Shown piece by piece: positions 23,939 through 62,833 of a stretch of 64,000 nt of DNA. The stretch spans positions 36,349 through 100,348 of the IMG/VR virus record IMGVR_UViG_3300002498_000005, one strand, 5' to 3'. Position 1 is the stretch's first letter; each line of letters begins with the position of its first letter. The notes below the pieces were generated by a model. It saw only the letters and a program-made list of their open reading frames with translations, did not search any database and was not told the origin of the DNA. The position numbers were made by a program, and so were the translations under genes. This DNA is from a virus.

Positions 23939-23966
23939 TTAAAATACATATTTTATCACACAAAAG

Positions 23967-24014
23967 ACACTACATATTGTGGTTGAACAATGGTCTTACC
24001 ACCATATATAGTAT
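23967..24014. promoter_or_regulatory. Tandem NrdR boxes
   Basis: ACACTACATATTGTGG and CCACCATATATAGTAT, starts 32 bp apart. Confidence 0.75.
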
Positions 24015-24045
24015 GCTTAAAACCAAAGTAAAGGAAAATTGAAAA

Positions 24046-24327
24046 ATGAATAACGATTACATCTGGACAACTACGGACATTAATCATGTGGCTTATTTGA
24101 TTTCCGTCGGTGGATTTAAAATCCAAGACTTTCATAAAGAAAATAAAAACGGCAAAGAAGTCGTAAGTTTTGTATTTTATGAATCCGAGACCACAATTAA
24201 CAATGAACTAAGAAACTATATTAATAGTGAAATCGCTAAATTTAATCAATCAAAAAATGAACTCCTTTCTCTTATCAGGCAAAATAAATTAACTAAAGAA
24301 GAAATGCTAGGTAAAGTCAATGGGTAG
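24046..24327 (+). CDS. DUF5659-like small protein
   Basis: TTDINHVAYLISVG..F.F pattern; overlaps the recombinase start. Confidence 0.55.
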   Translation: MNNDYIWTTTDINHVAYLISVGGFKIQDFHKENKNGKEVVSFVFYESETTINNELRNYINSEIAKFNQSKNELLSLIRQNKLTKEEMLGKVNG

Positions 24328-25348
24328 ATCGTCAGTTTATAATAGCATAACCTCCGATGAAACATGGGAAGCGGTTAATAAAAAAAATAAGAGTTTATTG
24401 AATGAATTTATTGATTATTTGCGGTCTACTGATAAATCTGCATTAACTATTGTTAATTATGAAAGCGATTTAAAGATTATATTTACGTGGTGTGCGCTTG
24501 AAAATGATAACAAATTTTTCGTTGAATTTACAAAAAGGGATATAATTAAATGTCAAAATTATTTACTCAATGAGATGAAACTTGGGTCTAGCCGTATCAG
24601 ACGTATGAAAAGTAGTATGTCTAGTTTATCGGGTTATATTGAAAATATTTTGGACGAAGATTTTCCAGAATTTAGAAATATTATAAATAAAATACCTCAC
24701 CCCGCTCCTAATGAAGTACGTGAAAAAACTATAATGTCAGAAAAAGATGTGGATAAATTACTGAATTACTTAGTTGAACATAAAGAGTATCAGAAAGCGT
24801 GTGCGGTTGCATTGGCTGTTTGTAGTGGAGCAAGAAAAGCTGAGTTGCTTCGATTTAAAGCATCTTATTTTATTGATGAAAATATTATATACGGTTCACT
24901 TTATAAAACTCCAGAAAAGATAAAAACGAAAGGGCACGGAGTCGCAGGTAAAAAAATCTTCAAGTACGTTCTTATGAACAGGTTTCAATTATATTTTGAT
25001 TTATGGGTGAAAGAAAGAGAAGAGCTTGGCGTTAATATCGATGACTTGTTTATCAATAATGAAGACGATCAATATGTATGTGCGAGTATATCTATGTTAA
25101 ATAGTTGGGCTAATTCATTTTCGAAAATAATTGAATTAGATTTTTATTGGCATTCATGCCGACATTTTTTTACAACATATCTTTCAAAGGCTAATGTTCC
25201 CGCCGAGATTATAAAGGAAATATCTGGGTGGTCGTCCATAGATATGGTATCAAGATACGACGATACTGAAGTAGACGAATCTTTAGGCAAGTATTTTAAT
25301 GCTAATGGCATTAAAAATACAGAATCTAAATCATTAAGTGATTTATAA
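24320..25348 (+). CDS. Tyrosine recombinase (XerD-like; SPbeta YomM position)
   Basis: SAM-like N-domain; catalytic R (GARKAE), K (KTKG), HSCRH, GW, Y (SRYD) all intact. Confidence 0.9.
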   Translation: MGRSSVYNSITSDETWEAVNKKNKSLLNEFIDYLRSTDKSALTIVNYESDLKIIFTWCALENDNKFFVEFTKRDIIKCQNYLLNEMKLGSSRIRRMKSSMSSLSGYIENILDEDFPEFRNIINKIPHPAPNEVREKTIMSEKDVDKLLNYLVEHKEYQKACAVALAVCSGARKAELLRFKASYFIDENIIYGSLYKTPEKIKTKGHGVAGKKIFKYVLMNRFQLYFDLWVKEREELGVNIDDLFINNEDDQYVCASISMLNSWANSFSKIIELDFYWHSCRHFFTTYLSKANVPAEIIKEISGWSSIDMVSRYDDTEVDESLGKYFNANGIKNTESKSLSDL

Positions 25349-25448
25349 ATATTGCGAGGTGCAAACCTCGTTGATATAAAAGTGCCATTTTATTCATTCG
25401 CTGAGTAGGGTGGCACTTTACTTTAATTAAAAATTGAGGAGAATAAGA

Positions 25449-25922
25449 ATGATAGAAAAATATATAAACTATGTTCCTGTTTCAGAAAAAATAGCCTTGG
25501 CTCAAAAAATATCCGCAGTTGTCGTTGATGATCTAGGTATAATAAATAAAAATAGCTTGAAGATATGCTCAACCTGCCTATTTGTTGGAGCCTATGTCGA
25601 AGATAAAGAATTTACTACAAATGATTATGATTATATAAAACAAAATAGGCTTGATAATGAGTTACGCGAAAAATTAGACGCAAAAGAAATAAAAGAATGG
25701 GAAATCGTTTTAGACAATGAAATTAATTTAGTTGCTATGCAACGTAAAATGCAAAGCACAAATGTTATGAAATCTATAACTTCTTTACTGAGTTCTCTTG
25801 AGACAAAAGTTAATTCTACAAACTTTGACAAGGCAATGAAAGAAGTTAATAAAATAATTGACAACCCAGATAGGTTAAGCAAATTTAAAGAGCTACAGGA
25901 AGTAGCTAAAAAATTATCATGA
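25449..25922 (+). CDS. Hypothetical protein (possible tail assembly chaperone)
   Basis: Upstream of the TMP; YVPVSEK motif. Confidence 0.55.
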   Translation: MIEKYINYVPVSEKIALAQKISAVVVDDLGIINKNSLKICSTCLFVGAYVEDKEFTTNDYDYIKQNRLDNELREKLDAKEIKEWEIVLDNEINLVAMQRKMQSTNVMKSITSLLSSLETKVNSTNFDKAMKEVNKIIDNPDRLSKFKELQEVAKKLS

Positions 25923-26440
25923 AAAACATAACTACTGGTAACTATCGTAGCTATAAAGATTTAGTTTCGGTTATTCATACCTATATTAATGCTGATATGG
26001 CTCCTATTTTACAACAAGTAGCTGAAGATATACACCAAACATTATTCGATTTTATTAAAGATAATTGGTATTGGGATAGACCTACTACTGAGTATTACGA
26101 TAGAACGTATGAAGTTATTAATTCTATCACAATAAGCAAGATTAAAACCGTGGGAGGCGGAAGAGAAGTCTCTATTTATTTTGATGATTCTAAAATTAAC
26201 TCCAATCAAGGCGAAGCTGGGAAATGGGATCAACATATGTCTATGGATGGATCGACTTCTTGGGGCGGAATGTCAATTGGAGAATGGGTTGTGCAATGGA
26301 TGGATATGGGACAAAATTCGCAATTCTCTTCCTATAGTGGCATTCATTTTATAAAGAATATCACGGATAATAAAAAACAATTTATAGCAGAAATAAATAA
26401 TCTTTTACAGGCAAAGGGATATATGTGCGTAGTTAAATAG
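25919..26440 (+). CDS. Hypothetical tail protein
   Basis: PTTEYYDRTY motif; directly before the TMP. Confidence 0.55.
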   Translation: MKNITTGNYRSYKDLVSVIHTYINADMAPILQQVAEDIHQTLFDFIKDNWYWDRPTTEYYDRTYEVINSITISKIKTVGGGREVSIYFDDSKINSNQGEAGKWDQHMSMDGSTSWGGMSIGEWVVQWMDMGQNSQFSSYSGIHFIKNITDNKKQFIAEINNLLQAKGYMCVVK

Positions 26441-26454
26441 AGGGGGGTGATTGA

Positions 26455-29400
26455 ATGGCTTTAGCAGATGGTGGAATTGGCATTATTCTTAGTTGCCAGT
26501 TATCCCCCACAGATATTAGTAAAATCCAATCGCAGATAAATTCACTCCAAAATTCAATAAACAAAAAACCAATTAATGTTTTGGGCAATAGCGCGTCTGC
26601 CAAGAGTGCAACGCAAAATCTTGATCAATATGGGAATACTTTAAATAATGTTAAAGACAAGGTAGAAAAAACAAGTAAAAGTGTAAAAAACGCTGGAAAC
26701 AACGTACAAGATTTTAGTAAAAAAATTAAGGGCGTAGGGCAAGTAACAGACGAATTTGGACAGGGATTAACAAATATTATCGGCAAATTTGCCAAATGGT
26801 ACCTTATTGCGGGCGTAGTTACTACCGTAATAGGTGGCATAACTGGGGTAGTTGGAGTTGTAAAAGACTTAAATGACGCAATGGTTAATCTACAAATGGC
26901 GACTGGCGGTAATTCCGAACAAGCCCAAGCATTAATGACTAGTTATAATCAGATGGCTAAAGAAGTTGGTGCCACAACGGTTGAAGTAGCTGATTCAGCC
27001 AATTCATTCTTACGTCAAGGTAAGTCTATAGCAGATACTAATACTCTTATTTATGATTCATTAGTGCTTAGTAAGGTCGGTATGTTAAGCTCCTCTGATG
27101 CAACACAGTATCTTACAAGTGCAATGAAGGGGTATAAAGTAAGCGTTGAAGATACAATTGGTATCGTGGATAAATTATCTGCTGTTGATTTAAAGAGTGC
27201 AACAGATGCGGGCGGATTAGCAGAAGCTATGTCAAGAACGGCAAATATTGCTGATACAACTGGCGTATCAATGGATAAATTAATAGGCTATCTAGCCACG
27301 GTCGGGGAAGTCACGCAAAAAAGCATGGACTCTGTGGGAGAAAGCTTCAAAACAATTTTAACTAGAATGCAAAATGTTAAACTTGGTAAGTTTTTAGACG
27401 ACGAAGGCGAAGATATTTCTAATGTAGAAACCGTTTTATCATCTGTGGGCATTAAACTAAGAACCGATAGTAATACGTGGGCAAACTTTGGCGATGTGTT
27501 AGACGAAGTTGGTGGCAAATGGAGTACCTATAGCGGCGTTCAAAAGAGTGCTATAGCAAACGCTTTTGCGGGTGTAAGGCAAGCCGAAAATTTCCTAGTC
27601 CTTATGAACAACTATGGCACCGCTCTTGATTATACTACTGTTGCGGCAAACAGTGCTGGCACCGCACAAGCAAAAATGGCAAACTACGAAAATTCTGTTG
27701 AAGCTGCGACAAAGCGTATGACGGCATCATATGAGGCTTTTTCGTCTGCTCTTTTGAGTTCTGATAGCTACAAAAATGTTTTAAACTTTTTCTCTGGATT
27801 GCTAGATACTTTTACTTATCTTGCCAGCCACTTAGATGTACTTAATGTAGGCTTTTCTATATTATTTGGCGTACTTGGTTTGAAGGCTATTAAAGTTATA
27901 TCTACTATATCAGGACAAATATATGCGCTTGGTGGCGCCGTCAATATGTTAAAAACAACACTTGCTACATTGGCTCCAGCATTAGGGGTAGCCGTTGTTT
28001 TATACGGAATGTCTAAGGCTATAGAAAAAATACAAGAACTTAATGCAAATTATAAGGAATTAAAAGATGAATCATCCAGTTACGTAAAAACATTTTCAGA
28101 TAATAAAGACGCAATTTCTGGCATGATTTCTTCGTTAGAAGGCGTAACAGAGGGTTCTGATGCATATTATAAAATTTCTAATGAATTAGCAAAAGTATTA
28201 CCACAAATTGTTGACTATACTGACGCCGAAGGTAACGCTCATTTAAAAACAAAAGGGTATATAGACGATCACGTAGCATCTATGAGCGAATTAAGCAAAG
28301 CCTATAACGAAACAGTAAAGGTCGATTATGCTGACGAAATTGCAATGTTAGAAACCTTGCAATCAAAGTATGAGGCATTAGGGTTTGCTAAAGCGAATGC
28401 TATTTCTGAAACTTATGGTACTTCTTTTGAAACATCTGGAGCAATACAAGGAAGTATTGAGGTAAGCCCTGAATTAACATATCAGAAAAAATATTTGGAT
28501 TGGCAAGCCACAAAGATTTCAGAGCAAATCAGAGAAAGTTTAGTCACGAAGATGGTACAAGCCTCTGATATTAATGATGGTCTTAAAGATGCGCTAGAAG
28601 AATATTTAACCAAAGCAATTGCTGGGATGGACGTATCAACGGATAAAAACATAAGTACCGTTGGTAGTAAAATGTTAGAGCTTACGAATTTGTTTGCAGA
28701 AGATATGGCGAATAAACCAGTGGCAGAAATAGGTGCTATAGCTTCCAGCACATATGACTTAGCAAAAGCGCTTGATACTGCATCTGCAAGTTATGACGCC
28801 GCATATGCAGCTACACAAAATTTATTTGATATTCAAGAAAAACTTAACGATGCACAAAAATTAACTCCTGAGATTATAGACGATATTATAAAAAAATATC
28901 CTGAGCTCATGGGGGAAATTACAGATTATAAATCAGCACAAAAAGCCGTTAGCGATGAAATCATAAATCAAGAGAGCATTGCCAATCAAGCGTATGCACA
29001 AATGCTCGCGGCAAATGGTAGTTTTGTCCAAGGAGTATTGGCTAATAATTCTTCTCTTACAAATATGTTATCTTCATATTATGGGGTGGATGTAACTAAC
29101 TGGAACGAAGTCGCCAAGACAAAATATGGTGCAGATAGTAGTTTAGTTGGGTTATTAGGCAATTTATGGAGTAAATATTATGGGCAATCTAAAGTAGCAT
29201 TACAAGCTCAATTATTAGGTATGCAAACAGCGTCTGTCATACTTTCTGGGTTAGGGATGAAGGTATCTTCGGATACCGCTCAAAATATTACCGCTATTAA
29301 AACACTTTTAGCTTATTACGATACTGCCCAAAAATCTTTTGGCGGAGCGGCTAAATTTACTCCTACTAAATCTTCTTCATCTAAGGCTGGTTCTAGCAGT

Positions 29401-30549
29401 TCGAGTCCTACCTCTAATACAAAAACTTATATTGATCTACTTAATGAACAATTAAAAAAGCAAGAAGATATTTTAGAGAGCCAAAAAAAGCCCTATGAAG
29501 ATAAGATAGGTTTAATTGATACCGAAATTGATAGACAGAATGATCTATTGGATATTTTAAAACAACAAGCCGAAGAAGTTGATAAACAACTTTCTTTACA
29601 GCAAGCGATAGATAAACTAACTAACATTAAAAAAGAAAAAAACGTAAGGCTTTATAATGGGGCAACTAAGCAATTTGATTGGGTAGCCGATCCGACAACG
29701 GTTGCAGACCAACAGGCAATTGTTGATAATCTGCAAAAAGAATATGATCTTTATCAAAAAGAACAAGCAATTCAAAAAAGGATCGCTGGGCTAGAAGCCG
29801 AAAAAGACGCTCAACAAAATCTTATCGATCAAATCGAGCAAAGACAAAATCAATTAAAAGATTTTGCGTCTGATATGGGATTATTAGATGACGAGGTTCA
29901 AAACAATATCACAAGTTGGAATCAACTTATTGCTGCTTTACAATCTGCTGGTATTGCTTATAGTGACATATCTGGAATGGCTGGCATCAATGTAGGAGTT
30001 TCGGCGGGTGGAACAACGGCGGCGACTTCTTCGTCGGGAGCTTCGTCTTCCAGTGGGTCTTCTAGTGTGGGCAAGGTTTCTACCATATCTAGTACGCTTA
30101 AATCTGGTTCTAAGGGTGAAAACGTAAAAATTCTTCAAAGCGCTTTAAATGCTTTGGGATATAGTGCTGGAACTGTAGATGGTATATTTGGAACAAAAAC
30201 AAAATCAGCAGTTATCGCATTTCAAAAGGCTACGGGAATTAGTGCTGATGGCATTGTAGGGGCTAATACAAAATCTAAGTTTAAACTTAAGGGATACGAT
30301 AAAGGCGGAGGGATTTATGACACAGAACCCATTATGGTTCATGGTAAACCTAATCGCCCAGAATGGATGTATTCTGCACCTAATGTGGAATCTATAATGA
30401 GTAGCTTGCCCACAATTCTTGCTAATATGGCAAAGGGTGGCGGCGGAATAACGATCCAAAACATGACAGTAAAAGCAAATAATCCTAGCGAATTTATGCA
30501 ACAAATGAAAAATGTAAGTTCTTTAGGCGGGTTAGTTTCGAGGAGGTAG
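26455..30549 (+). CDS. Tape measure protein with C-terminal peptidoglycan-binding domain
   Basis: TP901-type core ([12 protein letters not shown]), TM-like segments, coiled coils, [31 protein letters not shown]. Confidence 0.92.
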
Positions 30550-30552
30550 AAG

Positions 30553-31632: not shown

Positions 31633-32481
31633 ATGGCGATTATTAATATTTCTATAGTTGGTTCTACGATTGTTGCTGGTAGTACTATAGCAACCCTTCC
31701 TGAATATAATATCGTTCAACTTAATGGCGAGGCTATTGTTGACAAATTAAGAGTGGTAGATTATGCAATGACTACAGCAGAACTTGACGCTCTTTCACTC
31801 TCTGATATATATGTTTGGGATGCTAATACTTTGTTATACGCTCAATTTACTAATAATTTTAATGCTGGCAGTATTGATAACGCAACGACCATTGATAGTT
31901 GGGATATTATCAGATATACAAAAGGATCGATTACTCCTACGGTAATTGCAAAAGAATTAGACGGGGCAGAGAATAGTATAGTCGATTATACGGCGGTTAA
32001 ACCAAATAGTTATTATTATACGATTTTCCCGATATCTGATTCAGCGGTTTTAGCTAAACTACAAACAAACCTTATTACTGAGTGTTATGATTATTATGCA
32101 TTTATTGATGACACGACAGGTGAATCATTTACTTTTAAGAGCAATATCGAACCTCAATCAATAACGTTAAATACCCCCGTAATTACATACGAAGGGTTTA
32201 CTCAATATCCCGCTAAAGCTCAAGGGCAATTAAAATACAGCAGTGGTAGCTTTTCTGCTCTTTCGGGCAATGTAAGTAATGGATTATATGAAGATGATAC
32301 GGTAGTTACAATTGAGGCATTAAAAGCTTTTATATCTAATAATCATTCAAAAATTATGAAAGACCGAAAAGGTAACATACGTAGAGTATTTACTGAGAAT
32401 TTAACAAGCAATGGTGACGAAAAGCCTTCTGAAATACCTACTACAATTTCATTTCAATGGACTGAAGTGGGGGCGGTATAA
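31633..32481 (+). CDS. Distal tail protein-like
   Basis: KIMKDRKG...ISFQWTEVG. Confidence 0.6.
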   Translation: MAIINISIVGSTIVAGSTIATLPEYNIVQLNGEAIVDKLRVVDYAMTTAELDALSLSDIYVWDANTLLYAQFTNNFNAGSIDNATTIDSWDIIRYTKGSITPTVIAKELDGAENSIVDYTAVKPNSYYYTIFPISDSAVLAKLQTNLITECYDYYAFIDDTTGESFTFKSNIEPQSITLNTPVITYEGFTQYPAKAQGQLKYSSGSFSALSGNVSNGLYEDDTVVTIEALKAFISNNHSKIMKDRKGNIRRVFTENLTSNGDEKPSEIPTTISFQWTEVGAV

Positions 32482-33632: not shown

Positions 33633-33635
33633 TGT

Positions 33636-33664: not shown

Positions 33665-33699
33665 AAGAATATAATACCAAGAGAGGATGTAATATTAAT

Positions 33700-34695: not shown

Positions 34696-34706
34696 GAGAA
34701 TCAAAA

Positions 34707-34922: not shown

Positions 34923-34959
34923 TAAAACTGCTATTTTAATTCATATGGAATAGCCTAAT

Positions 34960-34993
34960 TGAGAGGGGTAATTTTTTGCCTCTCTTTTATTTA
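34960..34993 (+). terminator. Intrinsic terminator
   Basis: GAGAGGGGTA/TGCCTCTC stem then T run. Confidence 0.5.
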
Positions 34994-35089
34994 TGCTTTT
35001 ATTACGTTTGCAAGCGGGATAAAAGCTTGTTAAAGAGGGCGTAGCCAGTACCTATGCCTTTTCTTTTTGTACTGGGAGGAGAAAAATTT

Positions 35090-36340: not shown

Positions 36341-36421
36341 TAGAAACGACTGAATAAAATAAAGATTTTATTCACATGGATAAGGTAGTATTTAAGAGAT
36401 AATAGGGGAATAACGGAGATT

Positions 36422-36450
36422 GAGAGAGGTGAATCACCTCTCTTTTTATT
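36422..36450 (+). terminator. Intrinsic terminator
   Basis: GAGAGAGGTGA-A-TCACCTCTCT-TTTT. Confidence 0.7.
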
Positions 36451-40440: not shown

Positions 40441-40471
40441 AATAAAATAGAAATAAAAGGGGGATTTTAAC

Positions 40472-42219: not shown

Positions 42220-42248
42220 AAAACACCCCTTTAATTAAAACTATAATT

Positions 42249-42617
42249 TTATTCTTTAATATCTTTTTTACTTAAATAATGAGGCAAGTCATCCCATTGC
42301 AATTCATCTAATTCTTGATGATGCACTATAGCTGCCAAATTCCAAATACAAGCAATGAGATGATCTTCGTCTTCACATCCCATTTTAAGTTGTTCTAAAT
42401 GTCTTTCTGCCGAATTAAGGTATCTTGAAAATGGCATACCTTTCTCCCAATTCCTATCTGCATATTTATTAGCCCCTCTTTCAAAATGAATAGCTAATCT
42501 TTTGATAAAAAATGGACTAATAAGATCATATCTTCCCTTCCCTGTTTCGGGTTCTCTCATTGCATTATTCTCACCAAAAGACATTCTTTTACCACTATCT
42601 TTTAATTTATCGTTCAT
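42249..42617 (-). CDS. dATP/dGTP diphosphohydrolase domain protein (DUF5664)
   Basis: KGRYDLISP..GANKYADRNWEKG..RH..EDHL..WN. Confidence 0.8.
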   Translation of the reverse strand: MNDKLKDSGKRMSFGENNAMREPETGKGRYDLISPFFIKRLAIHFERGANKYADRNWEKGMPFSRYLNSAERHLEQLKMGCEDEDHLIACIWNLAAIVHHQELDELQWDDLPHYLSKKDIKE

Positions 42618-44696: not shown

Positions 44697-44723
44697 TATA
44701 ATCCCTCATTTAAAATTCATGTT

Positions 44724-44837
44724 TTATTTTTTTATTGCTCGAATAATAGCTTCAATTCCTTCGAGTACCGCTGTGATTAACATAAGAAATCCTACGAATA
44801 TCCAAAAATTTGAAAATATAAATTGTATAAATTCCAT
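44724..44837 (-). CDS. 37-aa single-TM peptide
   Basis: GAGG RBS; MEFIQFIFSNFWIFVGFLMLITAVLEGIEAIIRAIKK; not in the ORF track. Confidence 0.6.
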   Translation of the reverse strand: MEFIQFIFSNFWIFVGFLMLITAVLEGIEAIIRAIKK

Positions 44838-44878
44838 TATTTTACCTCATTTAAAACTGTCATTTTATTCATATTTTT

Positions 44879-44926
44879 ATACCATATATAGTATGCCTAC
44901 ATTTATAATACTACCATATATAGTAT
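44879..44926. promoter_or_regulatory. Tandem NrdR boxes upstream of the dut/thyX cluster
   Basis: ATACCATATATAGTAT and CTACCATATATAGTAT, 32 bp apart. Confidence 0.75.
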
Positions 44927-44930
44927 AGCA

Positions 44931-45101
44931 TTATCTATTTTTTTCTGTGCCACCATTATTTTTTATATAGTCTTTTAATTCTTGGGAAAATTCATGGATT
45001 AAACAAACTGCTTCCCAACCTTTGTTTTTAGTACATATAGCTATCTGGGTTTCGTTAATAGGAATAGTTCCTCCACATAAAGGGTAAATAGATGTTATCA
45101 T
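44931..45101 (-). CDS. Hypothetical protein
   Basis: GGGAG RBS. Confidence 0.45.
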   Translation of the reverse strand: MITSIYPLCGGTIPINETQIAICTKNKGWEAVCLIHEFSQELKDYIKNNGGTEKNR

Positions 45102-45845: not shown

Positions 45846-45881
45846 TATTTTGATTTCCCCTTTCTAATTAAAATCTAACTT

Positions 45882-46577
45882 TTATTTACTTAATGGGATA
45901 TTATCATATTCTAATAATTCTTTCCTAATATATTTAGCTTCAGCATTCTCTCTAGCATGTACCGCATCTTCAAAATATTTAAACGAGCCTAAATAAATTT
46001 CTTGTTTATTTATTTTAATTCTTGCTCTCCATTTTTGTGATTGCTTTTGCCAATCAACGCCCTTTGCCCCACTATTGTTATGTTTAGATAATTTTGCCGT
46101 TAATGCATTTTCAATATTGGTAACATATTTTAAATTACATCTTCTATTGTCCCATTCGCATTTATTTAAATGATGAATAATAGAATTTGGGCTATCCATA
46201 ATCAATTTGTGGAGTTTGACATTTTTACCTTGTATTCTCGTTATGACATACTTATCAAAATCTAAATACCAATTATGCTCTTTAACTAAATTTAAGTCCT
46301 GAATGTCAAAATAAAAAACGTCGTTAGTATCAGTAATCCCCACACAATAATTATCCTTAATTAGGATTTTTGTTTCTCCTACCGAATTTCTTTTCCTTGT
46401 TTTATAAAGACAGCCACATGATTTAATTCTGCCACTCGTAAGATGTGATGCTCTAACTGATTTAATTGTATGGTTTTCGCATAAGCATTGACAAATATAA
46501 TAATATTTTTTTGTGTCATCTTGACTAATTACTTGGAGATTTCCGAAAATGTCTCCGATTTTAATTATTTTTTCTAT
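45882..46577 (-). CDS. HNH-AP2 homing endonuclease (ATA start)
   Basis: Frame open to ATA after GAGGG; IGDIFGNLQV..CQC.C..SCGC, LHK..HH....DNRRCN, NNSGAKGV. Confidence 0.8.
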   Translation of the reverse strand: MEKIIKIGDIFGNLQVISQDDTKKYYYICQCLCENHTIKSVRASHLTSGRIKSCGCLYKTRKRNSVGETKILIKDNYCVGITDTNDVFYFDIQDLNLVKEHNWYLDFDKYVITRIQGKNVKLHKLIMDSPNSIIHHLNKCEWDNRRCNLKYVTNIENALTAKLSKHNNSGAKGVDWQKQSQKWRARIKINKQEIYLGSFKYFEDAVHARENAEAKYIRKELLEYDNIPLSK

Positions 46578-47948: not shown

Positions 47949-48590
47949 TTATATGCTAATAAATTCATTGGCATAATATGGAGTATTTTTATGATACTTA
48001 TTATTCAATCCAGCAATATATTTTTTATTGTCCTCGAACACATCTAAATCTAGAAATGGATATTGCACACTTCTAATTTGACTATATCCACTATCAGATT
48101 CTACAGTAAATTCAACGGATTGCGCCATTTTGTTGACGTCAACAACTTCACCGAGTGTTAATTTAATTATCTCTGCATCGCCCTCGCTGTCGATGTATTG
48201 GTAAGGAAGCTTCATATCCGTGTGAAAACCATCTATTAAATGTCTTATTTTACGCATTTTTTCTGGGAAGCAACCATTTGTATTAACAATAATCAAACCG
48301 TCGTAATAGGCTTTTAAATCTTCTAAAAACACCGCTATATCACTAGATTTATTTAAAAGGAATTCGCCACCACTTAATATGATGGCGTCTGATAAATATC
48401 CGTTTTGTTTGACTTGAGATAAAATATACATTTTATCACATGTTTCTGTCTCATTTACATCACTTACAAGTGCTTTATAATTAAAACACTTGTAGCAATG
48501 TAAGTTACAACCAATAGTATTGATTATTAAAGAAGTGTGATTAGGTAGGTCAACAAAACTTCGTATAATGTTTTTACTGAATAACATCAT
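47949..48590 (-). CDS. nrdG: Anaerobic RNR activase (radical SAM)
   Basis: GCNLHCYKCFN, LSGGE, NTNG; coupled to nrdD. Confidence 0.85.
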   Translation of the reverse strand: MMLFSKNIIRSFVDLPNHTSLIINTIGCNLHCYKCFNYKALVSDVNETETCDKMYILSQVKQNGYLSDAIILSGGEFLLNKSSDIAVFLEDLKAYYDGLIIVNTNGCFPEKMRKIRHLIDGFHTDMKLPYQYIDSEGDAEIIKLTLGEVVDVNKMAQSVEFTVESDSGYSQIRSVQYPFLDLDVFEDNKKYIAGLNNKYHKNTPYYANEFISI

Positions 48591-56011: not shown

Positions 56012-56019
56012 AACACATC

Positions 56020-57486
56020 CTACTGATAGTCATGTAGCACTGTACAGTATCCTATCTCTACCCATTTATTCCATGCCCCATTAAATTCATAAAGAATTGT
56101 TTGCCCATCTTGATCATTACGTGTCTTATCCACAAAGCCAATTAAATATTTTTTATTATTGTCTTTTATTATTTTTTTGTATGCTTTTTCAGTTGTCCAT
56201 TTTCCTGTTTTATCATCTTTTGCATAATTGTATGGTTTAACGTCATGTGTCCCTCCATCATATTCATCATCCCACATAGGTCGAAACATAACAATTTCGG
56301 AGAATACTTCTTTAATCTGTTTTGCGTTACTCAAACATGTTGCATCAAGATATCGTTTATTTAATGAGTGTAGAGCTAATTGGTATGTAGGCACTATTGC
56401 TACGTTTTCTTTATTAGCAAGTTGGAATAATTGCTTACTGTCTTCAATTAAATTTTGCCAAACTTGTCCTTCTGATAAATTTTCACCCTTCATTGTATCG
56501 TATAAAAATAATTCAAACCCTTGCCTAGACAATTTTTTAACTACTTTTTTCATCTTAGATGAATTATAATCGTACATTTTTACAAATCTTAATGTATTCT
56601 CATACCTATCATTAATGATGACTTTAGCCTCTTCAATTTTAGCTTTTTGTTCTTCGGAAAATCCACCCTGTTTAAGCTTTTTACGACTTAGGTTGTAATA
56701 TCCGATTTCAAATAACACCATTGACAATAAAAGACGCTTAAATTCATTTGATTTTTGTTCATTTGATATAATACAACATTTGTGCCCATTCTCTATAATG
56801 GGCAATATAAGATTTGCAAATGCCCAAGAGGTTTTACCTATTCCAGAAAATCCAGCAATTAAAAACAAATCACCTTTAGGAATACCCAATGTAATATAAT
56901 TTAATAAATGAGCATTTTTACTATAATTCAATCCCATCTCTGCGCCAGAATCGCATTCTTCTATAAATTTATCATCAATTACAAGTTTTTCGATATCAAT
57001 ATCTGTCGTTCTATCAATTATAAGATGATTAAGCATATACTCATAGTAATCATAAATTTGTTCAGTAGTCATCTTTTTAAATTTTTCGATATCCTGTGAT
57101 ACATTGAAGCCACGCTCATACAAATTTAATAATAAATTAGACTTACATAGAGCATCATAATATGATGGTATGTTATTAATGTCTAATAATAGCTTCATAT
57201 CATGTATGGACTTATATCCCATACGTCGCTCATAGCCATTTTTAAGTACATCTTTATTCGCTACATAAGCACATATACTAATATCGTCGAATTTTTTATA
57301 TCCCTGCCTATGCAATTCTAACCCCAATGCATAATAGAATCGAGCATCTTCAGTCAATAAATCTTTATCACAATTAATTGTATAATCTAAATAATTCTCT
57401 GGGTCTAACCATAAGGCAATTACAAAATTACCTTCGATAATATATCGGTCACTTGTAAGTTCTTTTGGATAAGTATCTAATGTCAT
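56020..57486 (-). CDS. DnaB-like replicative helicase
   Basis: GFSGIGKT, NEQ, YDTMK, QL, DKTR. Confidence 0.9.
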   Translation of the reverse strand: MTLDTYPKELTSDRYIIEGNFVIALWLDPENYLDYTINCDKDLLTEDARFYYALGLELHRQGYKKFDDISICAYVANKDVLKNGYERRMGYKSIHDMKLLLDINNIPSYYDALCKSNLLLNLYERGFNVSQDIEKFKKMTTEQIYDYYEYMLNHLIIDRTTDIDIEKLVIDDKFIEECDSGAEMGLNYSKNAHLLNYITLGIPKGDLFLIAGFSGIGKTSWAFANLILPIIENGHKCCIISNEQKSNEFKRLLLSMVLFEIGYYNLSRKKLKQGGFSEEQKAKIEEAKVIINDRYENTLRFVKMYDYNSSKMKKVVKKLSRQGFELFLYDTMKGENLSEGQVWQNLIEDSKQLFQLANKENVAIVPTYQLALHSLNKRYLDATCLSNAKQIKEVFSEIVMFRPMWDDEYDGGTHDVKPYNYAKDDKTGKWTTEKAYKKIIKDNNKKYLIGFVDKTRNDQDGQTILYEFNGAWNKWVEIGYCTVLHDYQ

Positions 57487-57983
57487 TCAATGTCCCCCAA
57501 AAAATTTGTTAAATCTTTATGTGTTTTAGTGTTAGACGTATTATTATTAATAATATCAACGTCTACCTTTTTCGTATTTTCGACTATTAATTTACGAGAT
57601 TCTTGTTTATCTATGTCATTAATATTATTTTTGATTATTGCAAAAATATATTTTATTTTTCCATATTCATTTCCAAAGTTTTTATTTGATAATGCGTATT
57701 GAATATTTTTATTACAATGATTAAAGGTTTTTAATATAACACCATATGAGTAAGTCTCATGCAATATTTTGACTTCTTTTGAAAGGACTGTGGGGAATTG
57801 CGTCATATTTTTATAGCCCATAATATCGATAAGTTTATCAATTAATATTATCCTACATTTTTTCTCATATACGTATATATCGTATATCTCTTTACTTTTA
57901 TAATATTCTCCATTGTCTGCCCTATAAAAAACATCAGATGTTCCATATTCATTTGTCATTTTGCATTTAACTTTACGTGCCAT
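57483..57983 (-). CDS. YorH-like helicase-associated protein
   Basis: YIFAIIKNNIND motif; upstream of the helicase. Confidence 0.6.
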   Translation of the reverse strand: MARKVKCKMTNEYGTSDVFYRADNGEYYKSKEIYDIYVYEKKCRIILIDKLIDIMGYKNMTQFPTVLSKEVKILHETYSYGVILKTFNHCNKNIQYALSNKNFGNEYGKIKYIFAIIKNNINDIDKQESRKLIVENTKKVDVDIINNNTSNTKTHKDLTNFLGDIE

Positions 57984-57990
57984 AATATAT

Positions 57991-58023
57991 TATGGTAGGG
58001 AGATTATAAAATCTCCCACCATA
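57991..58023 (-). terminator. Intergenic hairpin
   Basis: TATGGT(A)GGGAGATT/AATCTCCCACCATA. Confidence 0.45.
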
Positions 58024-58034
58024 TACCCCCCTTA

Positions 58035-59096
58035 TTATTCGGCGGATTCCTCAACAAAAATATTTTGTAATTCAATTAATTGATCACGAGAAAACGCTTC
58101 ATAATCTTTAAAATTTTGGATGCCATATTCAGATAATTTTATTTTAGCAGTTTCCTTTTGATCTTTAGTGCCAGCCTTAAACGCGCTGGTAACAATTTCG
58201 AGAAGTTCTTGTTTATCGTTCTTTCCATCTACATCAGCAAATTTCTTAGCATCTACCTCTTTTTGCTTAATGTCTTTCATCTTTTTCTTTTCAAATTCAT
58301 TTTCAGAAATTGGCTTTGCAAGAGACGCTTTAATGCCTTCAATAATCGCATCATTATAGTTTTTTGCACCATAGAGTACGTGGGTAGGCATTGTTGAAAA
58401 ACGAGACCCTGCTTCTACAAATCCATCGTCACGGAAATACATGTATCGTTCAGTAGCATCAAGTGATCCGTTTTTTACTATTTTTTCAGATACAATATTA
58501 CAAACAATGTCTGCTTTATATGCAAATGCATTAAAATAATCTTCGGTAAGATTTGAGGAAATTACGTTATAATCTTCACCTTCAAGCTTTTGTTTAATGC
58601 TTTTGATCTTATTGTGTCCGACAAGGAAAAGACCATATTTAGTACGTCTTAAGCGCATAAGTTGATCTTCAATCATTGAAACGACCTTCTTACGTCCTGC
58701 ACCATACCCACCAAAGGCGGCATTAATTGTCTTAACTTGCTTAGTTGGATTTTCAATATTACTCAACCGAATAGTTTCCTTTTCTGCTAAAGAAACCAAT
58801 TCGTCTATTGTATCAATAGAGATAATTTTATATGGGTTCTCTTCTGGATTTTTAACAAGTTCATCAACTAATGCAACGAACTCTTTCCAATTCATCGGAT
58901 TTTCCAACATAATACCATCAAGCCCAGAGAACCCATCTTCATCTCCGATACTAATCAAAAGAAGATTATCTATGTTGCCATATATTTCTTTTGCAATATC
59001 GGCAATAAGTGTACTTTTACCAATTTTTTTTGTACCTATAATTAAGTGTGTAAAATTTTCAAGAGCAACCTTTACATCGTGTCTTTTACCTAACAT
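58035..59096 (-). CDS. Sak4-like AAA ATPase / recombination protein (YorG-like)
   Basis: GTKKIGKS, IDTID, FGGYGAG, AGSRF. Confidence 0.85.
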   Translation of the reverse strand: MLGKRHDVKVALENFTHLIIGTKKIGKSTLIADIAKEIYGNIDNLLLISIGDEDGFSGLDGIMLENPMNWKEFVALVDELVKNPEENPYKIISIDTIDELVSLAEKETIRLSNIENPTKQVKTINAAFGGYGAGRKKVVSMIEDQLMRLRRTKYGLFLVGHNKIKSIKQKLEGEDYNVISSNLTEDYFNAFAYKADIVCNIVSEKIVKNGSLDATERYMYFRDDGFVEAGSRFSTMPTHVLYGAKNYNDAIIEGIKASLAKPISENEFEKKKMKDIKQKEVDAKKFADVDGKNDKQELLEIVTSAFKAGTKDQKETAKIKLSEYGIQNFKDYEAFSRDQLIELQNIFVEESAE

Positions 59097-59114
59097 TATT
59101 TTCCTCCTTTATTA

Positions 59115-60182
59115 TTAAGCGAATAAGTCTTCATCGTCGTCTGGCAATACGTCATCTGTCATAACGTCCTGTATACTAGCTTCTGTAGGAGCAATTGTAT
59201 AAACATTTTTCATAAAATCGTCAACATCATTACCAGTATCTATAGCGCCGTCCTTGTATGTGTAACGCAGATTTGGAGATATAAGTTTATATTCAGTTTT
59301 GTTGTTCCCAAACATATTGCCTGATGGTTTGAAATCATCAATTGTAGCTACACCAAGAGCAATCTCTTCGCGCTGTGCATCAGTCAGCATAGACTCGTCA
59401 AAATCAACCTCTTCTGCACCAGTGAATACCTTAATGCGCCATCCTAATTTAACAAACGTAGAACCAGCAGTAAGATGATTAATACGATTCTCCCAAACGT
59501 CTTTTTGCTTCACGTTTGTCATATCAATCTTTGATCCATCAAAAACCAATGCAATAGGGATATACTGATTCTTTATGTCTTTATCGATATACTGCGACAC
59601 ATAAGCTTTCATATCAATAATTTGGTCATCTATACGTGTCTTATCAAGGCAACCCTCATTATAGAAAAGGTCGAGATGTAAGAACGTACCGCTTTTATCT
59701 TCCTCTTTTGCAAGCCATACTTTTTGAATTTGGTATTCGATTTGAATTTTGCCATTATATGGTCTAAAATTCACGCTACCAGAAACATTAACGCGTTGAG
59801 ATGCTTTTAAATTTTCTGCCAAATAGGTAATAAAATCGTAAGCATGTACAAATGTAATTTGTTCGCCGCCAATATTAGTAGAAAACTGTCGTACATAAGC
59901 GACCTTATCAAGAATATCTGGATTAAATCTGTCCTGCCATGCAATAGTCAATTTTTGAAAATCACTATCCATTGTCATAATTGGATTTTTTGCTTCATTA
60001 GTAGGCTTTGCTCCAGTTAGAGACACAAATTGTCCATCATTTTTAGAAGGCTTTACAAGAAAATTAATACGTTTTGTTTCCCAATCGGCTTTTTTATAAA
60101 CTGGTATGAATCGGGAATTATGATTTTTATCTTCTCCCTTTGGGATTGCTACATTTCCAACAAATGTAAAAGTATTAGCCAA
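59115..60182 (-). CDS. Single-stranded DNA-binding protein (YorF-like)
   Basis: FTFVG N-terminus, acidic tail DDDEDLFA. Confidence 0.75.
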   Translation of the reverse strand: MANTFTFVGNVAIPKGEDKNHNSRFIPVYKKADWETKRINFLVKPSKNDGQFVSLTGAKPTNEAKNPIMTMDSDFQKLTIAWQDRFNPDILDKVAYVRQFSTNIGGEQITFVHAYDFITYLAENLKASQRVNVSGSVNFRPYNGKIQIEYQIQKVWLAKEEDKSGTFLHLDLFYNEGCLDKTRIDDQIIDMKAYVSQYIDKDIKNQYIPIALVFDGSKIDMTNVKQKDVWENRINHLTAGSTFVKLGWRIKVFTGAEEVDFDESMLTDAQREEIALGVATIDDFKPSGNMFGNNKTEYKLISPNLRYTYKDGAIDTGNDVDDFMKNVYTIAPTEASIQDVMTDDVLPDDDEDLFA

Positions 60183-60267
60183 TATTATAGACCCCCATTT
60201 TTATTTTATTTATTTATAATTAACATACTTAGGTATGATAATGAGTTAAAAGATACGTTTTATTTGC

Positions 60268-60315
60268 ATACTATATCTTGTATGCGTTTGTTTCATACAC
60301 CACTATATATAGTGT
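60268..60315. promoter_or_regulatory. Tandem NrdR boxes upstream of the replication operon
   Basis: ATACTATATCTTGTAT and CCACTATATATAGTGT, 32 bp apart. Confidence 0.8.
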
Positions 60316-60357
60316 CTTTTGTGCATTAAAATCAGAATTTTAATTTTATGTTAGTTA

Positions 60358-60546
60358 TTAAATTAGGACTTTGTCTCCCATTTGTTTCATCGTCGCAACA
60401 TCCTTAGCACTAACGTCATTCCAAATTTTAGCAAATATATCCATTACTTCAAATATTGATTTCCAGTTACCATCATTATCTATTAATGTTTGTCCATATT
60501 TTTTCGCTATTTCTTGTAATTCATCAATATAACTACTTTCCATCAT
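60358..60546 (-). CDS. Small protein resembling a tape-measure core motif
   Basis: GAGGG RBS; [30 protein letters not shown]. Confidence 0.5.
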
Positions 60547-60703
60547 TACCCTCTTCTTGGGCTTGTACTCCACAACATTTTTTATATTTTTTACCACTAC
60601 CGCATGGACATAGTTCGTTGCGTCCTGTTTTCTTTTCAGTTCTAACGTATGTAGATACCTTTACTATTGGCGGCTGTCTGTGCCCAATTTCTCTTTTTAC
60701 CAT
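60533..60703 (-). CDS. SEC-C metal-binding motif protein (56 aa)
   Basis: [19 protein letters not shown]; AGGAAGG RBS; missed by the ORF track. Confidence 0.85.
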
Positions 60704-60738
60704 TATTTTCCTTCCTATTATATATAGTAAATTTTGTT

Positions 60739-60891
60739 TTATTTAATAAGTGTCCCTAATGAAGTGGTCGCCTCTAAATATTGTCGAAGCATTTTTTGTA
60801 ACTCTTCTCTAGCAATCTTTCTCATTTTTGCTACGACTTCATCTGTAAATTCAAGATCAATCTTCACTGTCATTGTATCGATTACTCCCAT
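60739..60891 (-). CDS. Small hypothetical protein (50 aa)
   Basis: AAGGAG RBS; [15 protein letters not shown]... Confidence 0.5.
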
Positions 60892-60909
60892 TTCCTTATT
60901 CTCCTTTTG

Positions 60910-61185
60910 TTAAAATTTAAGTTTTATTTTTTTTATGGGTATAGTTCTATATTCGCCAAACCATGCAGTATCATTTATGCATTTACCCGTATTTTTATCA
61001 AATACCCAATATTCTGAACCATCATCGAATTCATGACCTATTCCAAGATCATAAAACTCCTTATCGGTTAACTTAACATCGCTGTCACTTAAAACTATAA
61101 AATCATTGTTATCAAATATCATATTCATTTGTTCGTGTGATGCTAAACCATTTAGATGAAAACTATAATTCATTTTTTTACTCAT
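60910..61185 (-). CDS. Hypothetical protein
   Basis: GAGGAG RBS. Confidence 0.6.
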   Translation of the reverse strand: MSKKMNYSFHLNGLASHEQMNMIFDNNDFIVLSDSDVKLTDKEFYDLGIGHEFDDGSEYWVFDKNTGKCINDTAWFGEYRTIPIKKIKLKF

Positions 61186-61215
61186 TTTACTCTCCTCGTA
61201 GTTAAAATAAGGCTT

Positions 61216-61686
61216 TTATTTATGATGCTTTACTCCATTGTCTTTTGCAAACATAAATTTATCATAATAGTCTGTGCCGTTTTTATTATCAAATGCCCTA
61301 CACGCAGATTTAATTGTACCAATACATAATGCGCTTTTACCATTTTCAAAATAATCAGACTTCATTTTGAATTCATTACCTTCTTTATATGTAGAAGACA
61401 ATTCTACTTCATCGTCAGATTCATAGCATATCCATTCAAAAACTTCGCCAAGCATCTTAAAATAATCGTCTATATATTGCCCTTGTGTTTGTGGCATAAA
61501 ATAATCATTAAAATCATTACGTTCAAACCCATGTCCGTTCCCATCGTCGTCTTTAATGTCAAACCCACATCCATGTCGTCCCCATATTTTTATAACGGTA
61601 TATTCTTTGCCTACTGTAAGAGTGGGTGCTCCCGTTGATTTCATCACACATGGATTTCTAGCAGTTATTTTATCTCCTACCTTCAT
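61216..61686 (-). CDS. Hypothetical protein
   Basis: MKVGDKI SH3-like start; AAAGGG RBS. Confidence 0.6.
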   Translation of the reverse strand: MKVGDKITARNPCVMKSTGAPTLTVGKEYTVIKIWGRHGCGFDIKDDDGNGHGFERNDFNDYFMPQTQGQYIDDYFKMLGEVFEWICYESDDEVELSSTYKEGNEFKMKSDYFENGKSALCIGTIKSACRAFDNKNGTDYYDKFMFAKDNGVKHHK

Positions 61687-61703
61687 AAGTTAACCCTTTC
61701 TAT

Positions 61704-61880
61704 CTATTTATTTGAACTCCAGTATCTTTTGATTTTTTGTTTACATTTTGGGCAAGTATAATAGAATTGAAATTGATATTTTGGATTGTCCGATAAGTTA
61801 ATCCCTTCATTATCTCCGAGATCATCGTTGTTGCAAGATGGGCAAATATCTTTTGTGGTCGATAAAATTGCTTTTTTCAT
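61704..61880 (-). CDS. Small Zn-ribbon protein (58 aa)
   Basis: GAGG RBS; CPSC...CPKC. Confidence 0.55.
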   Translation of the reverse strand: MKKAILSTTKDICPSCNNDDLGDNEGINLSDNPKYQFQFYYTCPKCKQKIKRYWSSNK

Positions 61881-61931
61881 TTGTGCCTCTTTCAGTTAAT
61901 TGGGATATCTTTACTGTCTATTTTTTTAACG

Positions 61932-62483
61932 CTACCCCCTGCCAGCAAACTCTCCATACCACTCTTCTCTCATCTTCTTTGCGAATTTACCCGCTTCGTG
62001 CACATCTTCAAAATGTTTCCATTTGTGATTTTTGCCATTTTGGTCTTGTAATTGCACAATCCAATCTTGAGATTCATTACACCATGAAACGTTTCTATAA
62101 CCAGACTTATTGTTTTTATTTAAGCCGCTCCTATGTTTTAAATTTTCTTTTTGTGTTGTAACTCTTAAATTATTTTTTTTATTATTTAATGGATTATGAT
62201 CTATATGGTCTATTTTATTATTAGCATTGTGTTCGTCCATAATGAGCCTATGTAACACTAAGGTCTTATATTTTGGTTTACCGTTAATCATGCCTAAATA
62301 TTGCATTATTTCCGCATAAAATCCAAATGCGCTTCTATGCCAACCCACATGAATTTTATACCCTATTTTATCAATTTTAGTTAAATCTTCTAAATCAATC
62401 AACACATTATATTTATCGCCATTGCGTCTAATTATATGAAAAATTACTGTATTGCCGATTATTGTATATTTATTTTTTATCAT
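61932..62483 (-). CDS. HNH-AP2 homing endonuclease (ATG start)
   Basis: LHRLIM..DHIDHNPLNN..NLR, NKSGYRNV, YGEFA. Confidence 0.85.
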   Translation of the reverse strand: MIKNKYTIIGNTVIFHIIRRNGDKYNVLIDLEDLTKIDKIGYKIHVGWHRSAFGFYAEIMQYLGMINGKPKYKTLVLHRLIMDEHNANNKIDHIDHNPLNNKKNNLRVTTQKENLKHRSGLNKNNKSGYRNVSWCNESQDWIVQLQDQNGKNHKWKHFEDVHEAGKFAKKMREEWYGEFAGRG

Positions 62484-62506
62484 TTTTCTCCTATAAAACA
62501 CATGTT

Positions 62507-62833
62507 TTATAATATAAATTCTGCGTTATCAGATAGCTGACTCTTAAAATTTTCGGGTATCTTACCCTGACACCATAAATTATCAGTTTCAATAATTCTT
62601 CCGTCATTCATTTTGATTTTGAACTGTCGCCCACTACACCCTTTAAATGGATAAGTATCAGACCCAATATAGTATGATTCGCCTTTTATAAAAATGTGTT
62701 CGTCTTTCTCGGCTACCATATCTTGCCAAAATTTTATATGAAAACATTCACTACCACACGTATCTTTAAACTTACTACTTTCTATAAACTGTCTTTTTTC
62801 AAATGCTTGTCCACATATTTCACATTTAAACAT
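62507..62833 (-). CDS. Hypothetical Zn-binding protein
   Basis: CEICG..C..C..FW..NLWCQG.IP. Confidence 0.65.
   Translation of the reverse strand: MFKCEICGQAFEKRQFIESSKFKDTCGSECFHIKFWQDMVAEKDEHIFIKGESYYIGSDTYPFKGCSGRQFKIKMNDGRIIETDNLWCQGKIPENFKSQLSDNAEFIL

Follow-up and report, generated by a model that had tools for sequence, protein, structure and literature searches.

Why does one short interrupted palindrome, TAAAA-N6-TTTTA, recur at gene junctions of an uncultured phage, and does it belong to the tyrosine recombinase encoded among the tail genes of that phage? These questions were raised by the window, a 64,000-nt stretch comprising bases 36349–100348 of the 100,348-bp IMG/VR contig IMGVR_UViG_3300002498_000005 (G000; estimated completeness 67%). 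The original prediction, made from the window alone, had proposed an integron-like cassette system, with a dispersed repressor site as one alternative. On the sequence comparisons reported here, the site is a real, ancient and strictly defined palindrome, predicted to bind protein, that marks the edges of exchangeable gene modules. We tentatively favour, at a probability of roughly 40%, a dispersed operator or roadblock whose repeated copies double as short-homology crossover points. The matter bears on phage mosaicism, where exchange points at gene boundaries may arise by selection after random illegitimate recombination or through recombination at short 'linker' sequences that are conserved. 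In the present case, a single 16-bp palindrome, exactly conserved, marks where genes were exchanged within a large group of medical and industrial relevance, which includes phages of Bacillus anthracis and B. cereus, plasmid-prophages of Clostridioides difficile, the botulinum-toxin-converting phage c-st and SPbeta.

Spacing, symmetry and position of the site

A pattern search of the window yielded 17 perfect copies of TAAAA-N6-TTTTA, whereas dinucleotide-preserving shuffles contained 1.94 on average and at most 6, with none of 100 reaching 17. All 14 copies listed in the original prediction were among them, and its expectation of an excess over background was borne out: the frequency was far above chance and nearly all copies were intergenic. 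The three further copies (8126, 21029 and 48420) each lay within an open reading frame (ORF). The entire contig held 46 copies against 3 of the reversed control, the comparison count used in most genome-wide tallies. Of the 46, 29 fell to the left of the window, where 36 kb are occupied by an array of small genes on the minus strand. When the spacer in TAAAA-Nk-TTTTA was varied from k = 0 to 14, 46 copies were found at k = 6 and 1–7 at every other length. Perfect copies were enriched more than 10-fold. Copies with one arm mismatch stayed at the level of other spacers (54 vs 49–89), and symmetric double changes in the arms were not in excess; since perfect copies were enriched and one-mismatch copies were at background, the element is all-or-none. 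A simple gene caller placed 38 of the 46 outside ORFs, in a genome that is approximately 86% coding.

The nearest cultured relatives, judged by PolIII-alpha, were the Clostridioides phage pCD1602_4 (52% identity) and the Bacillus Tyroviruses Kirov, Thrax and PBC2 (approximately 44%), with the C. botulinum phage c-st more distant; a near-identity search of cultured phages with 20 kb of the window gave no match. The same peak at N6 alone recurred in other genomes, and the spacing was strict in ten. Counts of the motif and its reversed control were 46 vs 9 in G002, 50 vs 1 in G005, 25 vs 1 in Kirov, 21 vs 4 in pCD1602_4, 19 vs 6 in LIBA6276 and 34 vs 2 in SPbeta. Phages vB_BcoS-136 and c-st contained approximately 23 and 31 perfect copies, respectively. 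Among 39 IMG/VR contigs chosen because they encode a homolog of the recombinase YomM, approximately 34 were strongly enriched (e.g. 57 vs 3 and 61 vs 4). No N6 peak was detected in the Thomasclavelia phage TR-TP2 or in contig G006, the relaxed pattern described below included. As these are also Firmicutes phages, and as the flanks of the site are lineage-specific, a phage-encoded rather than a host-encoded reader is argued for. A description of the motif was not found in the papers searched on SPbeta, the Tyroviruses, phiCD211, Tsamsa and phiCD5763, a search that did not include the original SPbeta genome paper (Lazarevic 1999).

The original prediction had described the arms as invariant. Five base pairs are indeed fixed, but the arms reach beyond them: 19 of the 46 sites of G000 read AATAAAA-N6-TTTTATT, and 21 of the 25 Kirov sites were extended to ATAAAA..TTTTAT. 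The ends of the core favoured T as the first and A as the last base, the first being T in 51–90% of sites, which gives TAAAAT. Given the extended palindrome and these mirror-image core ends, the element is essentially two-fold symmetric. Stop codons and A-rich C-terminal codons would produce much of the apparent bias of the flanks in gene orientation. The flanking DNA held no further symmetry, so that the whole element spans 16–20 bp. Each lineage had its own preferred flanking bases, and the junction context was alike in all.

Three genomes, G040, G003 and G005, used a relaxed form, T-N-AAA-N6-TTT-N-A, in which positions 2 and 15 varied independently and without complementarity. At the junctions of G040, TAAAA..TTTCA was present in 22 copies, TGAAA..TTTTA in 20 and TGAAA..TTTCA in 12; over the three genomes, the combinations (A,C), (G,G) and (A,G) at positions 2 and 15, as well as both mixed forms, were common at junctions in gene orientation. 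Because this non-complementary variation lies within a five-pair A-U stem, a conserved hairpin of RNA or single-stranded DNA is ruled out. An intrinsic terminator or RNA hairpin was also rejected on the grounds that the arms would pair by A-U only, that compensated pairs were not in excess and that non-pairing variants were common. Independently varying half-sites point instead to duplex DNA bound by a protein, either as a symmetric dimer or as two monomers in inverted orientation, and the lineage-specific usage of positions 2 and 15 argues for a phage-encoded reader that co-evolved with the site. Dimeric helix-turn-helix operators, the CRP site among them, have this 5-N6-5 geometry with half-site centres 11 bp apart.

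Junction statistics were compiled from 207 sites in six genomes, with ORFs of at least 50 codons. The usual order in gene orientation was the upstream stop codon, the site, 2–8 nt, a Shine–Dalgarno (SD) sequence, 6–8 nt and the start codon. A stop codon lay at most 60 nt upstream of 159 sites, and in 68 of those it was the motif's own TAA; an SD-led start followed in 143 of the 207, at a distance that peaked at 12–23 nt. In long intergenic regions the site could adjoin the stop codon, with a terminator hairpin downstream of it (window 34923 and 36355; likewise in G002, G005, Kirov and SPbeta), or stand after the terminator, 60–125 nt before the next start (window 25377; aimR and yorE of SPbeta).

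In G002, AGCATAACAG was often found after junction sites. G006 carried a promoter-like sequence of approximately 60 bp three times (56, 850 and 43878; …GATTAGTGGAATTTTAATTATTTTATTAATATAAA…). The sequence TTAAT-N6-ATTAA of G006 was considered as a variant motif and rejected, as its copies belonged to a repeated promoter-like sequence or to scattered AT-rich DNA, not to junctions.

Gene exchange at the sites and the YomM-family recombinase

Kirov, Thrax3, Thrax1 and PBC2 were compared over their early arms, which are 72–88% identical where alignable. With the motif as anchor, at least one 40-nt flank was conserved in 31 site pairs, and just one in approximately 20 of these. Where the upstream flank was replaced, the match set in precisely with the first T of the site or with one A before it; where the downstream flank was replaced, matching ended 1–12 nt past the last A, the longer cases reflecting a shared SD sequence. 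The core was mostly identical in pairs of both kinds. The site with the core GTTTAC was joined to two alternative upstream genes and at least two downstream genes, in several combinations across the four Tyroviruses. In a blind junction test, both neighbours were kept at 0 of 29 informative motif junctions and at 186 of 453 motif-less junctions (41%), a contrast that is inflated since motif junctions lie in hypervariable arms, and that derives from twelve ordered genome pairs which are not independent. For motif-less junctions with gaps of 10–24, 25–44, 45–79 and 80–150 nt, both neighbours were kept in 50%, 9%, 48% and 32% of cases, respectively; a few motif sites that lie in long intergenic regions of regulatory DNA did not pass the gap filter, and these were conserved on both sides.

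Two single-gene indels were bounded by two sites. At PBC2 11748, the upstream flank was that of Thrax3 10725, and the core and downstream flank came from Thrax3 10592. At LIBA6276 88388, the upstream flank corresponded to pCD1602_4 101863 and the core to pCD1602_4 102053, approximately 190 bp further on. The crossover was in the left arm in both. Homology breaks and single-gene indels in related phages thus fall exactly at the sites, which is what the original prediction would have them do. In Kirov, two tandem paralogous small genes (MKQRIMCI... and MKKRILCI...) were each preceded by their own site (148378 and 148608; cores TAAATC and TAAATA). As Thrax3 has a single copy, a unit of site plus gene was duplicated.

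The recombinase gene of the window is flanked by an XepA-like gene on one side and by the tail-chaperone and tape-measure genes on the other. Kirov_46 occupies the corresponding place in Kirov, between the tail completion and tape measure genes, and yomM of SPbeta, a few genes past the XepA-like yomS, matched a four-sequence profile with an E-value of 8.6e-100. By sequence, the window recombinase is a member of the YomM family. The catalytic residues R, K, HxxR, H/W and Y were present in five of six aligned homologs, and the G005 protein has K for the second R. A search of the PDB sequences returned no relative of the recombinase at E ≤ 0.01, and with the NCBIfam XerA/integron-integrase model it scored 43.9 bits against a cut-off of 220. 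Its upstream partner, a DUF5659 protein, was rejected as reader of the site, since phmmer matches were limited to the two closest relatives.

Every complete motif-bearing genome tested for a YomM homolog encoded one. In 26 of the 53 IMG/VR loci, the 3' end of the YomM gene had a perfect site within a few to approximately 30 nt, and these sites had at least eight different cores overall; the late regions around these loci contained only approximately one site per 10 kb. Two sites flanked the gene in G000 and G005. The YomM homolog of G006 was 56% identical to that of the window and the other G006 proteins 23–39% (PolIII 28%). Since it stands on an unrelated backbone without the motif, even in relaxed form, the gene itself is mobile and can occur where the motif is absent. 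In the available 63% of its genome, G003 has no YomM homolog, yet it carries the relaxed motif. The authors who described the Tyroviruses proposed as attP a different palindrome, of 11-6-11 architecture, directly after the recombinase gene (PMC9703825). We found it at Kirov 35837 and rejected it as the motif, to which it is unrelated in sequence.

Readings of the site

At recognisable sigma-A promoters the sites are placed like operators, and they do not form a promoter of fixed geometry. At Kirov 143900 the site covers +8 to +23 of a perfect TTGACA-17-TATAAT promoter that is 97.6% conserved in Thrax3; at Kirov 33768 and in IMG/VR relatives, the N6 of the site is the −35 element of TTGAAG-17-TATAAT. 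Sites were also found right after NrdR-box promoters (window 60247 and 44852) and upstream of them (window 23940 and 60327, G002 87110). Given such positions, the dispersed repressor site, which the original prediction had kept as its alternative, fits at least as well as a recombination site. In the operator reading, TAAAA-N6-TTTTA, or more generally T-N-AAA-N6-TTT-N-A, would be the duplex DNA site of a two-fold symmetric phage-encoded protein, common to a very wide range of temperate siphoviruses of Firmicutes with large genomes (SPbeta and c-st, Tyroviruses, phiCD211-like phages and numerous uncultured ones). The bound protein would delimit expression units between a stop codon and the next SD sequence in accessory and early arrays, occupy sigma-A promoters at operon heads or the DNA immediately past them, and flank genes that were inserted into the late operon and are regulated differently from it. 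Because the same short and exactly conserved sequence recurs at module boundaries, it would also be a place of gene exchange between relatives. We infer that the reader is a regulator that blocks transcription and that exchange is its by-product. The first candidate for this reader is the YomM-family recombinase-fold protein, by analogy with MrpR (YopR) of SPbeta, which has a tyrosine-recombinase fold without the catalytic residues and represses from SPBRE, a repeated intergenic element at ten promoters (PMC10516654).

Several observations weigh against an operator. When the literature was set against the site coordinates, the MrpR peaks in chromatin affinity precipitation sequencing (ChAP-seq) were at the ten SPBRE promoters and not at the 34 TAAAA sites, so that the lysogeny repressor is not the reader and a simple immunity-repressor 'stoperator' model is unsupported. 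In the stretch examined, most MrpR-bound promoter regions (yonT, yonX, yopV and yopM) had no TAAAA site, and the motif was accordingly rejected as a form of SPBRE; the aimR and yorE regions had one each, just past the upstream terminator. All-or-none conservation is unusual for transcription-factor sites, and many sites have a stop codon on one side and a terminator hairpin on the other, a place where a roadblock seems redundant (window 34923 and 36355). A recombination site would explain more directly why exchange points coincide so sharply with the motif and why a site beside the YomM gene is conserved. Finally, tblastn presence/absence tables over ten genomes revealed no reader protein: the shared genes were PolIII-alpha, the helicase and a few virion genes, and none tracked the motif cleanly. 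Scans of 38 window proteins against Pfam and NCBIfam detected no sigma factor, RNA polymerase or obvious conserved regulator.

It is possible, although we lean against it, that the sites are true recombination sites of the YomM-family recombinase, with the core as an address. One monomer would bind each of the two inverted arms, and strands would be exchanged across the 6-bp core. As every site within a genome has a different core, sites would not recombine with each other; each would recombine with the site of the same address in a co-infecting or resident relative, giving ordered module exchange as with heterospecific lox sites and, occasionally, excision or insertion of a single-gene cassette. 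A phage-wide system of 30–60 such addressed sites, served by an enzyme family that SPbeta-like, Tyrovirus, phiCD211-like and c-st-like phages have conserved, and with cores that forbid intragenomic deletion and permit precise same-junction swaps between co-resident relatives, appears doubtful as well. The breaks at the site edges and the failure of every informative motif junction to keep both neighbours would be expected of such an enzyme, as would the varied partners of the GTTTAC site and the two bounded indels; the presence of YomM in motif-bearing genomes, the sites at the 3' end of its gene and its intact catalytic residues also speak for it. The inner core, A4-N6-T4, resembles the XerH/difH and XerS/difSL sites. 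The original prediction had seen in the motif the core architecture of tyrosine recombinases, and the inverted arms around a strict 6-bp core agree with this, but only 5 bp per arm are invariant (6–7 in some sites) compared with arms of approximately 11–13 bp in Xer/Cre-type sites. Likewise, an integron-like pattern was recovered (arrays, stop-codon overlap, cassette indels and an associated tyrosine recombinase), whereas membership of the integrons was not, as no long structured attC, attI or IntI insertion was seen. Further points on the other side are the motif-less G006, G003 as its converse and the different attP proposed for the Tyroviruses. The same breakpoints are equally expected from short-homology recombination at any conserved 16–25-bp junction.

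Breaks made by a phage nicking or cutting enzyme, or a recombination-initiation factor, could also turn the sites into hotspots by stimulating nearby homologous recombination, without conservative site-specific recombination. Clustered breakpoints, genomes rich in HNH, GIY-YIG and PD-(D/E)XK nucleases, and the all-or-none conservation of a bipartite palindrome are in line with this; interrupted palindromes with a fixed spacer are typical of nuclease recognition (restriction) sites. We consider it unlikely, as no nuclease co-varied with the motif in the tblastn tables, and as it leaves the operator-like promoter positions and the avoidance of coding DNA and of long conserved operons unexplained. 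Still less probable is a middle-gene promoter for host RNA polymerase redirected by an unrecognised small phage sigma factor or activator, with TAAAAT as a −10-like element and the start near the second arm. The frequent T at N1, the 2–8 nt between site and SD sequence, the density of sites in early arrays and their presence at operon heads would suit a promoter. T4 late TATAAATA and MotA boxes offer parallels, and the late promoters of T4 share this strictness and frequently include the stop codon of the preceding gene. However, the element is two-fold symmetric, its last core base favouring A as the mirror of N1, and many sites precede a terminator by 30–55 nt with no gene to serve. A −35-like hexamer stood upstream of TAAAAT in 14 of the 207 sites, about the number estimated for chance. 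The scan of all 207 for −35/−10 elements gave no position above this estimate, on which a sigma-A promoter was rejected, and −35/−10 hexamers at the 16–18-bp spacing of PeSL or sigma-70-type early promoters were not found. Some sites have the SD sequence inside the core and ATG 1–3 nt past the site (31249, 30342 and 34082 of the contig, 40454 of the window); these therefore cannot serve the next gene as promoters, and background copies may be among them. The Kirov annotation contains no sigma factor. The only phage RNA polymerase of SPbeta, its own YonO, starts the single late operon at one site upstream of yonK (PMC5467207), and the motif is therefore not its promoter. Very improbable, lastly, is a site that acts in RNA, either by forming a UAAAA/UUUUA hairpin or as the target of a protein or RNase in the intercistronic mRNA, and so controls processing or translation of the next gene. 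It would be transcribed within polycistronic arrays shortly before an SD sequence, as expected of such a site; yet a stem of five A-U pairs with a 6-nt loop is unstable alone, the variation at positions 2 and 15 does not preserve pairing, and the element occurs in both orientations with equal form and also upstream of promoters, outside the transcript of the gene.

Features of the window and comparison with known systems

The sites and the recombinase unit of the window are listed in Table 1. The claim that the site supplies the stop codon of its upstream neighbour held in all five cases: TAA of the motif ends the minus-strand genes at 42249, 45882, 61216 and 62507 and the 37-codon ORF at 44724, and an SD sequence and start codon follow 12–23 nt downstream, which agrees with the ribosome-binding site noted there. 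Pairs of sites also bracketed discrete units, as had been described, namely the DUF5659 and recombinase genes (23940/25377), a DUF4379 zinc-finger gene (34923/36355), the 37-aa ORF (44711/44852) and a pair of NrdR-like boxes (60247/60327). The module of site and first box at 60327 was found again at 23940.

Table 1. Sites and associated features in the window (window coordinates)
Feature	Position	Strand	Remarks
Perfect copy in ORF, possibly background	8126–8141		Pattern search
Perfect copy in ORF, possibly background	21029–21044		Pattern search
Junction site TAAAATACATATTTTA	23940–23955		1 nt past stop of XepA-like gene; upstream of NrdR-box promoter of DUF5659-recombinase unit
DUF5659 protein, 93 aa, upstream partner of recombinase	24046–24327	+	Pfam PF18903, 8.9e-5
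YomM-family tyrosine recombinase among tail genes	24320–25348	+	Pfam Phage_integrase, 2.7e-10; R..K..HxxR..H/W..Y present
Junction site TAAAAGTGCCATTTTA	25377–25392		28 nt past recombinase stop, right after CGAGGT-GCAA-ACCTCG hairpin
Junction site abutting stop codon, then terminator-like hairpin; left edge of DUF4379 unit	34923–34938		
Junction site 14 nt past stop of DUF4379 gene; strong terminator hairpin ~55 nt on	36355–36370		
Site with GGGGG in core, end of plus-strand late region	40454–40469		
Junction site; minus-strand TAA is stop of dGTP-diphosphohydrolase-like gene 42249–42617	42236–42251		
Junction site between 37-aa ORF (upstream) and 61-aa gene	44711–44726		
Junction site between NrdR-like box pair (44880–44935) and SD of 37-aa ORF	44852–44867		
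Junction site, stop of HNH-AP2 gene 45882–46343	45869–45884		
Perfect copy within radical-SAM (NrdG-like) gene	48420–48435		Pattern search
Site just past NrdR-box promoter of replication operon, ~+1 to +16 of inferred transcript	60247–60262		
Site just upstream of NrdR-box pair of replication operon	60327–60342		
Junction site between small minus-strand genes	60911–60926		
Junction site, stop of gene 61216–61686	61203–61218		
Junction site, stop of gene 62507–62833, beside HNH gene	62494–62509		

The window encoded PolIII-alpha, NrdD/NrdG, a DnaB-like helicase, a primase, a PD-(D/E)XK nuclease, ThyX and a dUTPase, together with a siphovirus-type virion module with a 1364-aa tape measure. A weak match to RepL, a Firmicute plasmid replication protein, at 58–540 and the ParM/ParG genes of the Kirov relatives suggest a plasmid-prophage lifestyle. 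Three pairs of NrdR-like boxes, of the type ACACTAyATATwGTGG / ACCATATATAGTATGC, were present at 23960–24016, 44880–44935 and 60263–60326. They precede the DUF5659-recombinase unit, the dUTPase/ThyX operon and the replication/NrdD operon, respectively. NrdR control of a recombinase gene would be unexpected; at G002 87110 a site is likewise followed by an NrdR box. The 37-codon ORF, MEFIQFIFSNFWIFVGFLMLITAVLEGIEAIIRAIKK, lies at 44724–44837 on the minus strand, between two sites at the head of the nucleotide-metabolism operon. It has a good SD sequence and its hydrophobic product resembles a small membrane peptide. Similar sequences (TTCAyATGGAwAwG...) were found just past both sites that bracket the DUF4379 gene (34939–35000 and 36371–36450), each entering a terminator hairpin; it looks from the sequence as if a unit of site plus terminator was duplicated when the DUF4379 gene was inserted. 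Homing-endonuclease-like genes (HNH-AP2 at 45882–46343, HNH_3 at 61932–62501 and GIY-YIG at 681–1394) were scattered in the region for replication and nucleotide metabolism, and several adjoin junction sites.

With 34 copies and a YomM homolog in SPbeta, the reader of the site and its mechanism, be it regulation, recombination or both, are accessible to standard Bacillus subtilis genetics; an operator or roadblock and a YomM recombination site are not mutually exclusive. If a regulator reads the site, it would form a new genome-wide operator network alongside that of MrpR and SPBRE. If exchange is driven by the recombinase, no earlier case would exist of a virus with its own gene-shuffling system of integron-like or lox-like type, and the system would be an enzyme-driven engine of modular phage mosaicism and of the gain and loss of single-gene cassettes.

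Among known systems, the stoperators of Cluster A mycobacteriophages (L5 gp71) are similar in number and place: 20–35 or more copies of one short site per genome, in very short intergenic spaces with frequent stop-codon overlap, at the early promoter and inside operons of temperate phages, some of which are kept as plasmids. In contrast to the symmetric 5-N6-5 motif, which is conserved across phages of different host genera, stoperators are asymmetric 13–14-bp sites of a monomeric immunity repressor and diverge with the immunity group. SPBRE and MrpR share with the motif the phage group and the form of a repeated intergenic element; MrpR, the reader of SPBRE, has the tyrosine-recombinase fold, and SPbeta also has its 34 copies of the motif and a YomM homolog. 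They differ in that SPBRE is another motif, of 15 bp, at ten promoters and that MrpR has lost its catalytic residues, whereas here 30–60 sites are mostly at junctions and the candidate retains them. The PeSL cassettes of T4-type phages are likewise short regulatory repeats that flank small accessory genes in hyperplastic regions, and they have been proposed as crossover points for modular shuffling among relatives. A PeSL, however, is roughly 50–70 bp long and consists of a sigma-70 promoter and a stem-loop, whereas the present element is a protein-type palindrome of only 16 bp with neither −35/−10 elements nor a stable stem.

The two recombination systems that come closest differ from the motif in the size of their sites. 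Integrons also have one-orientation arrays of small genes, inverted repeats that often overlap the upstream stop codon and a tyrosine recombinase nearby, and the single-gene indels bounded by two sites resemble cassette movements. Their attC sites are imperfect palindromes of 57–141 bp (R''-L''/L'-R' boxes) that recombine as folded single strands with extrahelical bases, next to an attI site and a Pc promoter beside intI and an insertion specific to IntI, none of which were seen here. Xer/dif and Cre/lox (XerH/difH, XerS/difSL and heterospecific lox sites) share the inverted arms around a 6-bp centre and the A-tracts at the core, and in these systems, too, differing cores would make sites incompatible. 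Their arms, however, measure 11–13 bp at one site per replicon, compared with 5–7 conserved bp per arm and 30–60 copies in the phages described here.

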